DNA of 6,214 nt from a virus (taxonomy: Duplodnaviria > Heunggongvirae > Uroviricota > Caudoviricetes), in IMG/VR virus record IMGVR_UViG_3300014522_000013; one strand, 5' to 3'. Position numbers and translations under genes: made by a program. The notes under the pieces were generated by a model. That model made no database searches. It was not told the DNA's origin and saw only the letters and a list, made by a program, of their open reading frames with translations. Numbering within the stretch: position 1 is the first letter of the stretch; the number at the start of each line of letters is the position of its first letter. Below are positions 2,548 to 6,214 of this stretch, piece by piece.

Positions 2548-3030
2548 TTATTTGATAAGAAGTGAAGGTTTCCCAACCTTGAGTTGAGCGCCGGGGATAT
2601 TTATTCCTGCTTTTAGTTGGTGCTTGATTGCCAACTTGTCGGCTTTAATTGTCGTTTCGAACTCAACGTATTCAGGAGGAAGGGCGCTTGAGTCGATGAT
2701 TTCTACAGTTTCTGACGGTTTGCGGATTGTTACCTGGTGAATACCTGCTCTAATCTTTTTCTTGCCAACCATTTCAAGCGATGACGCTATATATGATTTG
2801 ATGCTGTCAATCTTATTTTGAATTACTGCGGCTCGCTCATTCAGCGACTTTGCCTCTTCCTTGAGGCGTTCAGCATAACCAGATTCATTTTTAATGACGG
2901 AAAGAAGTTGCTCTATTTTATCGGTAAATTCTCCTTCCATGCCTTCTATTGTGTCAGCAATCATCTCTGGTTCTAAATCTGAATCCATCAATTTTGCGTA
3001 TTCATTGGCAATTTCATACAGTTTGCTCAC
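2548..3030 (-). CDS. Siphovirus Gp157-family protein (recombination-module accessory protein), about 160 aa
   Basis: Translation (..SKLYEIANEYAKLMDSDLEPEMIADTIEGMEGEFTDKIEQL...IPGAQLKVGKPSLLIK) has the size and pattern remembered for the Sipho_Gp157 family. Track start is a TTG at 3036 that abuts GGAGG; the GTG at 3030 has GGAGG with a 6-nt spacer and is the likely start. Overlaps the RecT 3' end by 17 nt. Confidence 0.78.
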   Translation of the reverse strand: MSKLYEIANEYAKLMDSDLEPEMIADTIEGMEGEFTDKIEQLLSVIKNESGYAERLKEEAKSLNERAAVIQNKIDSIKSYIASSLEMVGKKKIRAGIHQVTIRKPSETVEIIDSSALPPEYVEFETTIKADKLAIKHQLKAGINIPGAQLKVGKPSLLIK

Positions 3031-3916
3031 TGGCAACCTCCAGTTTCGCTTTGCATTCTGCGTAAATGGCTTGTACGTTCTGCTGCAATTTCATTCCAGA
3101 TGTCAGGCGATATGCTTCTGCAAAATATCGCTTCAAATCATCCATGTTTTCTGCCTGAGCCATTTCATCGCAAAGAAGTTGTGCTTTATCCATTATTTCC
3201 TGCTGGCGTTTCCGTTCATCTTCGCGGATATCTTCCTCTGATTTGTGCGGCATAACTGGTTCCTGATGCATACCTTCATCTTCGTTAAGAAGGTGAATGG
3301 CATTATCCAGTCGCTGGGCTTTAGGCCAGTATTTGCTGGCGCGTTTAACTATTGTTTTACGCGCCATCTCTTCCCAGAATGTTTTCCACGGTCCATTCTT
3401 TGCCTTGCTCGTTGCTTCCACAGCTTTAATTTCTGCCAGACTCATTTCTTCAGTCAGGTAGTCACCATCTGCTGTTTTAACCGTGCAATAACCTCCAACA
3501 ATAGAGCCTCGCTCACCAAATGCGTTGTATTTGTGGGTTGGTGCTGAATCAAGGCCATTTGATTCATAGGTGTCGTTTGAGTACACCAGTTTGCATTGCC
3601 CCCACTTAATTGATCCTGTCGATTGCGCAAGATGAAGTAATCCCATGTAACTGATATCAAGGCACACCATGCCGTCGCGAGGAACCAGATAAGCCAGTTT
3701 GCTGGCCGGGTTTAAGGTGATGCCGATCGCCGCAACATTGATGATGGCGTTCTGTGCGCTGGTTGGATTTGCCAGTGCTGTTTTAGCCAGGTAATCGTTT
3801 TTCTGGAAATACTGAATTGCAAACTGGCTTTCCTTAGCCCATGTCACCGTCTGTTCAGTCAATGCTCCGCAGAATAACTGCTCCTGCTGTTTAACGAATT
3901 CAACGATATTGCTCAT
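3014..3916 (-). CDS. recT: RecT-family single-strand annealing protein (phage recombinase)
   Basis: 300-aa translation carries the RecT/Red-beta core motif ...KNGPWKTFWEEMARKTIVKRASKYWPK..., comparable to E. coli RecT ...NGPWVTHWEEMAKKTAIRRLFKYLPV.... ATG at 3916 overlaps the stop of the upstream 103-aa gene as ATGA; GGAGAAG Shine-Dalgarno upstream. Confidence 0.9.
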   Translation of the reverse strand: MSNIVEFVKQQEQLFCGALTEQTVTWAKESQFAIQYFQKNDYLAKTALANPTSAQNAIINVAAIGITLNPASKLAYLVPRDGMVCLDISYMGLLHLAQSTGSIKWGQCKLVYSNDTYESNGLDSAPTHKYNAFGERGSIVGGYCTVKTADGDYLTEEMSLAEIKAVEATSKAKNGPWKTFWEEMARKTIVKRASKYWPKAQRLDNAIHLLNEDEGMHQEPVMPHKSEEDIREDERKRQQEIMDKAQLLCDEMAQAENMDDLKRYFAEAYRLTSGMKLQQNVQAIYAECKAKLEVASEQTV

Positions 3917-4458: not shown

Positions 4459-4574
4459 AATAAGACCTCAACTCTTTTCCATCCGTCACGTAATTTANNN
4501 NNNNNNNNNTCAAGTAAAGATTCATTTAATTGGAAGGCACCCATGCGAGCGCCTCCCGCGATTGCGTAAATCAT
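4443..4574 (-). CDS. cIII: CIII-like protein (FtsH/HflB protease inhibitor that stabilises CII), about 43 aa; four and a half codons are masked by the N-run
   Basis: Hand translation MIYAIAGGARMGAFQLNESLL-[E/D]-xxx-[x]-KLRDGWKRVEVLLCAMK against lambda CIII MQYAIAGWPVAGCPSESLLERITRKLRDGWKRLIDIL.... Readable bases in the two partly masked codons (GAN and NNT) fit Glu and Arg(CGT) of lambda ERITR. AAGGAA Shine-Dalgarno 7 nt upstream of ATG 4574. Missed by the ORF track because of the Ns. Confidence 0.82.
   Translation of the reverse strand: MIYAIAGGARMGAFQLNESLLXXXXXKLRDGWKRVEVLLCAMK
4498..4509. other. 12-nt run of N (masked or unresolved bases) inside the cIII-like coding sequence
   Basis: Literal n characters in the sequence; flanking reading frame is continuous if the run length is correct. 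Confidence 0.95.
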
Positions 4575-4598: not shown

Positions 4599-5567
4599 TT
4601 AGTAGGTTATTTTTGTTGCGAATACTTCGCCTTTTACGATGGCTGTTATGATATTTTTAGCAACATCTTCTGGTGCGCCAACCTTGATAAGGTCAGCAAG
4701 TATTTTGTTATTTACTTCTTTCCGGTGAGCTTTATCCTTTGCTCTACGCTCTTCTTCGTCCTTGATTCTTTTTTCTTCTGCTATTCTGGCTTGCTCTTTT
4801 GCTTCAGCCTCGCGCCGGATTCGTTCAGCCTCCTCCTGTGCTTTTCGGCGTTCTGCTTCAATTGCCGCCTGCTTTTCTCTTTCAGCTCGTTCTGCTGCCT
4901 CTTTTGCTTCGCGCTGTGCTCGTTGCTCGGCTTCAATGCGTTCACGCTCTGCACGTTCCGCTGCGGCCTTAGCTTCTGCTTCTCGCCTTGCTGCTGCTTC
5001 AATTTCGGCTTTTGCCTTTGCTTCGGCTTCAGCTCTGGCTTTCTCTTCAGCTTCTCTTTGTAAGCGTTCTTCATGCTCTCGCTTTTCCTGCTCCGCTTTG
5101 AGTCTTGCCTCTTCTCTTTGGCGGTCAAATTCGCGATCCATCAAAATCGCTATTTCATGGTCAGACTCAATTTGCTTTGCGAGAGCTTCAGCTGCTGCCT
5201 TAGCTTCTTCTTCGGCTTTAATCCGCGCCTGTTCTTCCTCATAATCAGTAAGAGGCTGGCGCGCCTTGGCTTTCAGTTCATCAAGGCGATCGCGCACTGT
5301 CTTGCGGTTGGCATCAATTAGCTTTGGAATTTCCTTCAGTTCAGCAACAAGGTCTTTGCCAAGACCATCGAGATATGTTTTCGTCTGCGCAACTTTATAC
5401 GCCAGAGAAGCGATCTCCTTTCTGCCCTTTGCCGTTGTGATATCAGGCACAAAGGACATAACTTCACGTTCAACCTTTTGAAGGATTTCTTCAATCTGGT
5501 CGGCAGACTGAAATACAGTCATTGCATTTGCTTTTTCAATAACAACTAAATCTGTTACTTCACTCAT
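4599..5567 (-). CDS. 322-aa protein: globular N-terminal domain (~105 aa), ~170-aa Glu/Arg/Ala/Lys-rich predicted single alpha-helix or coiled-coil, short C-terminal domain; function unknown
   Basis: Long ORF with GGAGG Shine-Dalgarno 4-5 nt upstream of ATG 5567. Central region is runs such as EAEAKAKAEIEAAARREAEAKAAAERAERERIEAEQRAQREAKEAAERAEREKQAAIEAERRKAQEEAERIRREAEAKEQARIAEEKRIKDEEERRAKDKAHRKE. Stop lies 24 nt upstream of cIII. Confidence 0.85.
   Translation of the reverse strand: MSEVTDLVVIEKANAMTVFQSADQIEEILQKVEREVMSFVPDITTAKGRKEIASLAYKVAQTKTYLDGLGKDLVAELKEIPKLIDANRKTVRDRLDELKAKARQPLTDYEEEQARIKAEEEAKAAAEALAKQIESDHEIAILMDREFDRQREEARLKAEQEKREHEERLQREAEEKARAEAEAKAKAEIEAAARREAEAKAAAERAERERIEAEQRAQREAKEAAERAEREKQAAIEAERRKAQEEAERIRREAEAKEQARIAEEKRIKDEEERRAKDKAHRKEVNNKILADLIKVGAPEDVAKNIITAIVKGEVFATKITY
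4745..5255 (-). repeat. compositionally biased, codon-repetitive DNA (CT/GC-rich on the plus strand) encoding the E/R/A/K-rich segment of the 322-aa protein
   Basis: Plus strand is dominated by gcttc/ctgc/ttct-type units without exact long tandem repeats; it generates several spurious overlapping ORFs in other frames (4530..5063 +, 4762..5244 +, 4781..5128 -). Confidence 0.6.
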
Positions 5568-5600
5568 ATATCCTCCATCAAAAAATCGCCCTCACATTGG

Positions 5601-5678
5601 NNNNNNNNNNNNNNNNNNNNNNNNNNNNNNNNNNNNNNNNNNNNNNNNNNNNNNNNNNNNNNNNNNNNNNNNNNNNNN
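5601..5678. other. 78-nt run of N (masked or unresolved bases) between the AT-rich orphan gene and the 322-aa gene
   Basis: Literal n characters; content cannot be read. Followed on the minus strand by ccaatgtgagggcgaTTTTTTga and then the Shine-Dalgarno of the 322-aa gene. Confidence 0.95.
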
Positions 5679-5706
5679 TGGAATGAATACACAGTGCTTA
5701 TTCGTA

Positions 5707-6177
5707 CTAATAAAACACCCAATTTTCTGTTTCTTGGTTGTGTCCAAAGTTATATTCAATATCTGGTGTTGATGTATCAATATTCTTCATCCCATCAACA
5801 AGAGTTGATACAACAGCTAAATCTTGTTTGATTCGCATCAAATGGTATTTCTTCCGGCGCAATAAACTTTCAATGGCAAGTTTCTTCGTTGGGAATGCAA
5901 AAGATCTTTCTGCATTTTTTGCTACTTTCTTAATTGCATATCTATTTCTCCTTTGTTTCCATTCCTGTAACCACTGATTTGGTGCTGGTTTAAAATTAAC
6001 AATCCAATGCGCAGGAACCAACCATGCATAATGCTCTGTCTGATGAAAAGCTATATATTGAAGTGCGAATATTTTGATCCCATCTTCTTCAACTGTCGCT
6101 TGGAATCTCCAGAAAACAGGCATTCCATCATGTTCAGTTTCTGATTCAGGAAAAGGTACGCTCCATGATTTTGTCAT
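5707..6177 (-). CDS. 156-aa orphan protein encoded in an AT-rich segment; function unknown (candidate accessory/moron gene)
   Basis: ATG at 6177 with GAGGTGA Shine-Dalgarno about 5 nt upstream. By eye the segment 5680..6214 is roughly 30-38% GC against roughly 45-60% for the rest. No family recognised (MTKSWSVPFPESETEHDGMPVFWRF...RRKKYHLMRIKQDL...). Confidence 0.75.
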   Translation of the reverse strand: MTKSWSVPFPESETEHDGMPVFWRFQATVEEDGIKIFALQYIAFHQTEHYAWLVPAHWIVNFKPAPNQWLQEWKQRRNRYAIKKVAKNAERSFAFPTKKLAIESLLRRKKYHLMRIKQDLAVVSTLVDGMKNIDTSTPDIEYNFGHNQETENWVFY

Positions 6178-6214
6178 ATCTCACCTCAAATAATTCAGTG
6201 CAGTGTTTATTCTG

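Follow-up and report, generated by a model that had tools for sequence, protein, structure and literature searches.

A lambdoid early-left gene catalogued as 933W L0079 and HK97 gene 45, apparently carried as a minimal cassette between N and ea10

The window analysed here, a stretch of 6,214 nucleotides (nt) from a virus of the Caudoviricetes (IMG/VR record IMGVR_UViG_3300014522_000013), is a segment of a lambdoid early-left (pL) operon with all of its genes on the minus strand. The subject of this report is the AT-rich open reading frame (ORF) of 156 amino acids (aa) near its right end, upstream of cIII. This ORF is the lambdoid early-left gene catalogued as 933W L0079, HK97 gene 45 and phi24B vb_24B_11c. 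As a sequence it is not new: it entered the catalogues with the 933W and HK97 genome sequences, and it has never been characterised. Base-level comparison with lambda indicates that it is a minimal, independently acquired cassette made up of a Shine-Dalgarno sequence (SD) and an ORF, apparently with neither a promoter nor a terminator of its own. With a probability of roughly one in three, we tentatively read its product as a basic binding protein without enzymatic activity, made early from pL and carried as dispensable cargo for conflict between phage and host or between phages.

Identity of the gene and the cassette that carries it

The phrog_1636 profile matches the protein with an E value of 2.7e-112, residues 1-156 aligning with positions 1-156 of the 156 in the profile. 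The protein is 100% identical to 933W L0079 (ST933Wp19, NP_049479), to phi24B vb_24B_11c and to its counterpart in BP-4795, and 99.4% identical over 156 aa to HK97 gp45 (AAF31125). The identical protein is also encoded by many Stx1 and Stx2 phages, by the P22-like phage vB_EcoP-683R2 (683R2) and by the BASEL phage Huey. The exact sequence is found on at least 1,000 contigs, where its name is always hypothetical or 'prophage protein'. A preliminary description of this DNA, made from its letters alone, had called the gene an orphan, a label that cannot be kept given the full-length profile match, the identity to L0079, these contigs and the distant relatives in many phages. The gene is present in 598 of 5,426 complete Escherichia coli genomes (11%), and a single genome may have as many as 4 copies. 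Plasmids almost never carry it (11 of 72,556 records, all predicted to be non-mobilizable).

The ORF opens with ATG and runs for 156 codons, with GAGGTG 4 nt before the start, so the strong SD and clean frame pointed out earlier are both there. The ratio of non-synonymous to synonymous substitution rates (dN/dS) is 0.17 against an 85%-identical homologue and 0.09 against a 64%-identical one, these being the two comparisons in which dS is not saturated; such values indicate a real protein-coding gene under purifying selection. Its GC content of 36.3% (28.0% at third codon positions) places it at the bottom of the 14 genes in the window, and lies below that of all 5,089 other 471-nt segments of the stretch (minimum 37.7%, mean 45.5%). 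The gene thus has, as had been claimed, a lower GC content than the rest of the operon, distinct from that of its flanking genes. Among the homologue loci, the family gene is lower in GC than its own flanks in 12 of 13.

Lambda reads uninterrupted AACAGAATAAACACTGCACTG^TGTATTCATTCC, and the window, the E. coli E1 prophage and phi367 have a 498-nt insert at the position marked ^. The motif GCACTG stands at both joints as a direct repeat (Table 1), and positions 6196-6214, upstream of the insert, are lambda-type spacer. A precise insertion in a lambda-type spacer, together with the deviant composition, bears out the separate acquisition that had been proposed. At 71 IMG/VR loci with the identical gene, flank identity collapses about 20-60 nt 5' of the ATG; downstream, identity to the reference holds until just past the T-run of the terminator and then collapses. 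The roughly 60 nt 5' of the cassette (GTGACTTGTGTTGGTCGCCAGAAAATGAAATTAGGCAGCAAACCACTT) are common to phages with differing N genes; this stretch encodes the C-terminus of a 99-aa type of N, but is non-coding after the 127-aa N of 933W and HK97.

Measured against the moron in the sense of Hendrix, the locus has an extra gene between sequences that are contiguous in relatives (the 498-nt insert flanked by GCACTG) and a deviant base composition (36.3% against the window mean of 45.5%). It does not have a terminator of its own, the terminator being found also in lambda, imm21, 434 and an Stx1 phage that are without the ORF.

That terminator closes a structured RNA block, 78 nt of which are masked in the window and were read from the near-identical phages E1, 933W, HK97 and 683R2. 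The terminator reads GCCCTC-CAATGT-GAGGGC followed by T6, and is annotated as putative in HK97 and as a terminator in 434. The block has a fold energy of -50.6 kcal/mol (z -4.9), and an Rfam scan of the unmasked equivalent region returned no family. From +10 to +100 after the ORF the sequence is 100% conserved in the 71 loci; the terminator loop varies while its stem is kept, and two of the 71 have a different terminator there. The 3' block, the terminator and ea10 occur at 98-99.6% identity in lambda, 434, lambda imm21 and other phages, all without the ORF. The structured leader and the terminator are therefore recipient backbone, and we rejected the assignment of the structured 3' region and terminator to the gene's cassette because lambda has the same block without the ORF.

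The block as a whole (about 115 nt, 5580-5692) is near-identical in lambda, lambda imm21, 434, Stx1 and Stx2 phages, HK97 and the window. Its equivalent in lambda (NC_001416) lies at about 33,905-34,045, where it may, we presume, be one of the terminators of the tL2 cluster, and it also serves as a mosaic recombination joint. Runs of N occupy 5601-5678 (78 nt) and, inside cIII, 4498-4509 (12 nt). Because the longer run covers the terminator's 5' arm and the first hairpin's 3' arm, only the T-tract is visible in the letters; it is present, as had been described, at 5580-5585. The window is 3 nt shorter here than E1, 933W, HK97 and 683R2, either through a deletion in the source or because the mask is not length-preserving.

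Table 1. Positions of the gene, its cassette and adjoining features in the 6,214-nt window
Feature	Positions	Strand	Remarks
ORF, 156 aa	5707..6177	-	18.6 kDa, isoelectric point (pI) 9.1; 933W L0079, equivalent to HK97 gp45, phrog_1636
SD (GAGGTG)	6182..6187	-	4 nt 5' of ATG; kept in all lineages
Cassette relative to lambda, 498 nt	5698..6195	-	18-nt leader with SD, 471-nt ORF and 9 further nt
GCACTG, 6-nt direct repeat, upstream copy	6196..6201	-	base-level comparison with lambda
GCACTG, 6-nt direct repeat, downstream copy	5692..5697	-	base-level comparison with lambda
Structured RNA leader, backbone	5608..5692	-	12-bp hairpin (5' arm 5681-5692 visible, 3' arm masked) and masked second hairpin
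Intrinsic terminator, backbone	5580..5607	-	stem 5586-5607 (5601-5607 masked), T-run 5580-5585
Coiled-coil ORF, 322 aa, annotated 'TolA'	4599..5567	-	phrog_1376, phrog_21365

Position in the early operon and expected expression

In transcription order the window carries the ORF, a 322-aa coiled-coil ORF, cIII (PF02061), kil (PF06301), two small ORFs and RecT (PF03837), and past RecT a Gp157-family protein and several ORFs of the exo-xis region, including Ea22-like proteins. The reported position upstream of cIII, kil and recT is therefore correct. When 933W N, the ORF and ea10 were used as the query for a slot comparison, the same two junctions were found to bracket different cargo from phage to phage: 933W has the ORF there, lambda imm21 has Ral, PhiR63_2 has SieB together with Ral, 434 has a 289-aa 'Nun C-terminal peptide-containing protein', and an Stx1 phage has an 83-aa unknown ORF. 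In lambda, SieB and Ral lie 5' of the same 3' block, and only the downstream junction is in common with 933W. In phi367 a true Ral (PF11058, E 2.2e-48) lies immediately 5' of the ORF. The preliminary reading of this site as a ral/sieB-type slot thus stands, now at base resolution. The slot is hypervariable in its cargo, and on its downstream side it ends at a conserved junction of structured leader, terminator and ea10 or cIII. The Nun-like gene of 434 (1285-2154) has N immediately ahead of it and the same terminator and ea10 behind it; its product might be a transcription-termination exclusion factor, which 434 would then have besides its N.

Across 69 loci the upstream gene is N in 56, the N genes belonging to three different families, and on the downstream side the neighbour may be Ea10, cIII, the coiled-coil ORF or some other gene. 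More distant homologues have no tie to N. In Salmonella NX263, L099 and a Vibrio phage the homologue opens an early operon or stands second in it; in Pectobacterium and L008 it is the last gene before xis/int. The distant homologues are always found in early or integrase-proximal operons amid small unknown ORFs, and homologues recur in accessory early-operon settings. A search of the neighbours for a strict partner gene found none, only generic winged-helix or ParB-type proteins and DNA methyltransferases.

In HK97 the promoter and terminator scan gave the order pL-like promoter, N, gene 45 and terminator, and the only hairpin match from N to gene 45 was a weak 5-bp stem inside N without a T-run. 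In the loci of the 83%- and 71%-identical homologues (L100 and L101), the ORF begins just 2-8 nt past the end of an N-like gene and is succeeded directly by a different terminator, GGCCGCATAGTCGGCC with a T-run. Because the order N, ORF, terminator is conserved and the sequence of the terminator is not, co-expression with N as an immediate-early product is suggested for those phages. The lineage of the window, which is a 100% match to the E. coli E1 prophage, has a different arrangement: ahead of the ORF come an N-like gene, then an 87-aa ORF (phrog_33140) and a terminator-like hairpin, and behind it the backbone terminator.

No sigma-70 consensus promoter was found upstream of the ORF in any lineage scanned, and the cassette's own leader cannot hold a promoter, being only 18 nt long. 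The earlier suggestion that the gene might form its own transcription unit is not sustained, as no consensus promoter was found and the terminator is backbone that lambda, 434 and lambda imm21 also have. From this anatomy, transcription would start at pL when the phage infects or is induced. Where the gene comes directly after N, with no terminator between them and one right behind it (HK97, 933W, 683R2 and the 71-83%-identical homologues), its product would appear alongside N as an immediate-early protein; in the window lineage (E1/phi367 type), where a terminator-like hairpin precedes it, expression should need N antitermination.

That hairpin lies just beyond the right end of the window, at about 8510-8545 of the E1 prophage (AGGCCGCATAGTCGGCCT then TCTTTTGG), and has the sequence of the hairpin found directly 3' of the ORF in L100. 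It is followed by TGGTATAAA, which resembles an extended -10 element and could be a weak promoter in the recipient spacer; lambda and phi367 read TGGCATAAA there.

On the other side of the ORF, the 322-aa coiled-coil ORF starts about 12 nt past the T-run and fills the position of ea10 in 933W and lambda; its product is highly charged and rich in Glu, Lys, Ala and Arg, and carries the annotation 'TolA protein' or 'coiled-coil domain-containing'. Further downstream, a recombination module (2548-3916, minus strand) consists of RecT and a Siphovirus Gp157-family protein in overlapping frames and replaces the exo-bet-gam genes of lambda. The PHROG label of the Gp157-family protein is 'Mu Gam-like end protection'. 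Between this module and kil lie a 103-aa ORF (phrog_3486) and a 40-aa ORF.

Protein family and predicted fold

Homologues at 55-85% identity are found in Salmonella, Pectobacterium, Cronobacter, Brenneria and Rosenbergiella. Protein length stays constant as far as about 55% identity, and relatives of full length are still found at 20-27%. An exhaustive profile search recovered 87 cluster representatives at E <=1e-3, including a distant family of 130-155 aa at 20-27% identity; the multi-domain matches P0059 and P0081 were set aside as repeat or low-complexity artefacts. All 64 of the distant relatives that were scanned map to PHROGs of unknown function (1636, 13631 and 25384), each of them matches the phrog_1636 profile, none of them has a Pfam domain, and the NCBIfam and PADLOC scans of these proteins were likewise empty. 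For the ORF itself, the Pfam and NCBIfam scans gave no match, and the sole match in PADLOC-DB 2.0 was Cas1_II at E 0.018 and 12.4 bits, which is noise.

The AlphaFold2 (AF2) model that we used was built from an alignment of 85 sequences including the distant family and reached a predicted local distance difference test score (pLDDT) of 95.4 and a predicted template modelling score (pTM) of 0.82; a run with 22 close homologues (pLDDT 59) was discarded. The model has long beta-strands at residues 19-30, 33-46 and 50-55, two short helices, a short strand at 83-86, a 33-residue helix at 98-130 and then an ordered C-terminal tail. The structure prediction and Foldseek comparison that had been proposed thus gave a confident model with no neighbour in the PDB (best E 0.79, template modelling score <=0.23), the N-terminal three-stranded sheet gave weak alignments over 42-70 residues, and a profile search of PDB sequences with the family returned only noise (E >=0.2). 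The earlier statement that no family is recognised accordingly holds for characterised families across the Pfam, NCBIfam and PADLOC scans and the PDB profile and Foldseek searches. A search of BFVD gave 12 matches at E <1e-3, every one an uncharacterised protein, from phages of Erwinia, Tenacibaculum, Achromobacter, Sinorhizobium, Rhizobium, Delftia and Cellulophaga. Some of the phages that carry fold relatives are, we believe, virulent.

The whole protein is basic, and the region from residue 57 to 130 is more so, with a pI of 10.9 and 17 K/R residues. Positions conserved at >=60% across 68 distant members include K/R at 24, 75, 83, 84, 87, 92, 109 and 118, together with G33, E46, T47, A94, A101 and aromatic residues; those at 75, 83, 84, 87, 92, 109 and 118 map to an element made up of a strand and the long helix. 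No consistent set of catalytic-type residues is conserved across the 68 members, and inspection of the ORF sequence found no hydrophobic stretch long enough for a membrane segment. Many distant members have H-E-T-x-C-x3-C plus a histidine in the long helix; this combination (query residues 45-53 and 115) might bind a metal. We did not use a metal site as a family feature: the E. coli clade reads H45-Q-T-E-H49 without either Cys, and another subfamily has a single Cys.

Possible function and comparison with known systems

Stoichiometric binding is proposed because the protein is basic, has conserved K/R positions and shows neither an evident catalytic set nor a membrane segment. With low confidence, we expect a soluble, basic protein whose target during early lytic growth might be nucleic acid, or an acidic host or phage protein. 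As dispensable conflict cargo, it would more probably act in counter-defence or host takeover than in a defence expressed from the prophage, because the gene apparently has no promoter of its own, lies in a repressed operon, encodes no membrane segment and has fold relatives in phages believed to be virulent, for which a defence expressed in the lysogen would be senseless.

Several points weigh against this reading as an early binding protein in conflict. Neither experiment nor homology points to any function; the label 'defence or anti-defence' of the preliminary description would, on our analysis, be guilt by association only; and the step from a basic protein to one that binds nucleic acid is weak. 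The slot holds anti-defence cargo (Ral) as well as exclusion cargo (SieB and Nun-like proteins), so position does not give the direction of action. The promoter and terminator scans do not detect Rho-dependent terminators or weak or non-consensus promoters, and the extended -10-like TGGTATAAA lies near the cassette in the E1 lineage. On the supporting side, a DNA methyltransferase lies within about 5.5 kb of the gene in 5 of 13 divergent-homologue loci (<3 kb in four), with Lar near one, but this is a raw count without a background rate and methyltransferases are common in prophage early regions. Searches of the accessible literature found nothing on the gp45/L0079 protein. In a published run of the DefenseFinder anti-defence models on phi296, phi367 and related carrier phages, only methyltransferases, Ral and Gam were flagged (PMC12502783).

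Instead of taking part in conflict, the product could be a regulator or accessory factor of the phage's own development, that is, a small nucleic-acid-binding protein for transcription or antitermination, recombination, or integration and excision. Such a role would suit the basic central region with its conserved K/R positions, and also the positions of the gene: right behind N in lambdoids, immediately ahead of xis/int in Pectobacterium and other prophages, and first or second in the early operon in the Salmonella, L099 and Vibrio loci mentioned above. We nevertheless consider it unlikely: among phages that are otherwise collinear some have the gene and some do not, and lambda, 434 and 21-type phages lack it, which argues that it is not a core regulator. 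It is also found alongside no fewer than three unrelated families of N, as well as in phages that have no N, and it has no fixed partner gene. A further alternative is that RNA is the selected element, namely the structured 3' region and terminator, with the ORF incidental or decaying. The 3' block is indeed fully conserved in the 71 loci and strongly structured, yet the ORF keeps its length to about 55% identity and has full-length relatives well below that. This alternative is effectively refuted by the dN/dS of the ORF (0.09-0.17) and by the presence of the block, as backbone, in lambda, 434 and imm21 without the ORF.

The gene might also be a true moron like SieB, Rex or HK022 Nun, made in the lysogen as a defence or superinfection exclusion function that aborts or excludes other phages. 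The same slot holds SieB in lambda and PhiR63_2 and the protein with the Nun C-terminal peptide in 434; the gene is AT-rich, very common in E. coli prophages with its up to 4 copies per genome, and in the window lineage lies between two terminator-like hairpins with a possible extended -10 (TGGTATAAA) upstream. All the same, no PADLOC match rises above noise, no consensus promoter was found, and, unlike the membrane protein SieB, the product has no membrane segment. Moreover, the gene abuts N inside the repressed pL operon in HK97, 933W, 683R2, L100 and L101, and it has structural relatives in phages that we believe to be virulent. On balance we regard such a defence as improbable.

More broadly, the gp45/L0079 family might form a class of early phage conflict proteins that has gone unrecognised, with a fold absent from the PDB, made with or just after N and either neutralising a widespread bacterial immune or housekeeping factor or excluding rival phages. 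We regard this broader proposal as possible, though doubtful; among the hosts of phages with structural relatives are Pseudomonas, Vibrio, Rhizobium, Erwinia and Bacteroidota. The gene is carried by the model phage HK97 and by Stx1 and Stx2 phages of enterohaemorrhagic E. coli O157:H7, among the first transcribed lytic positions, and its slot is the one used by Ral, SieB and Nun-type proteins; as a candidate for a new function in conflict between phage and host or between phages, it is therefore well defined. If it did counter a defence system, this would bear on the host range of Stx phages and on the spread of toxin genes. At present it stands as a catalogued hypothetical gene with good circumstantial context, not as a discovery.

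The ORF is distinct from the characterised genes of this region. It has no Pfam or PHROG match to the N antiterminator (N_peptide or Arg-rich profile), N being a separate upstream gene in all relatives, and none to Ea10/Ssb, Ea10 being a separate gene downstream in 933W; nor was there a profile match to any known regulator. Of HK022 Nun and the Nun-like protein of 434, the latter occupies the same slot; the sequences are unrelated to that of the ORF, the 434 protein is 289 aa long, and the ORF has no Pfam or PHROG match that would relate it to Nun, with no test aimed at the Nun-type Arg-rich or C-terminal motif. SieB also comes from the variable region that separates N from ea10; the lambda RefSeq record places it on the opposite strand, and no Pfam or PHROG match linked it to the ORF, whose product also has no hydrophobic segment.

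Ral, like the ORF, is small dispensable cargo of the pL operon in the slot from N to ea10. It has 66 aa against the 156 aa of the ORF protein and shares no sequence or profile similarity with it; the ORF has no Pfam match to Ral (PF11058) at E <=0.1, whereas the Ral of phi367, as a positive control, was detected at E 2.2e-48. Because Ral and the ORF stand side by side in phi367, they are not functional alleles. The known genes that the ORF does equal are 933W L0079, HK97 gp45 and phi24B vb_24B_11c, which have the same length and lie in the same operon, and nothing of substance differs. Compared with 933W and HK97, the gene in the window lineage follows an extra ORF and a terminator-like hairpin rather than N, and the next gene is the coiled-coil gene rather than ea10 or cIII.
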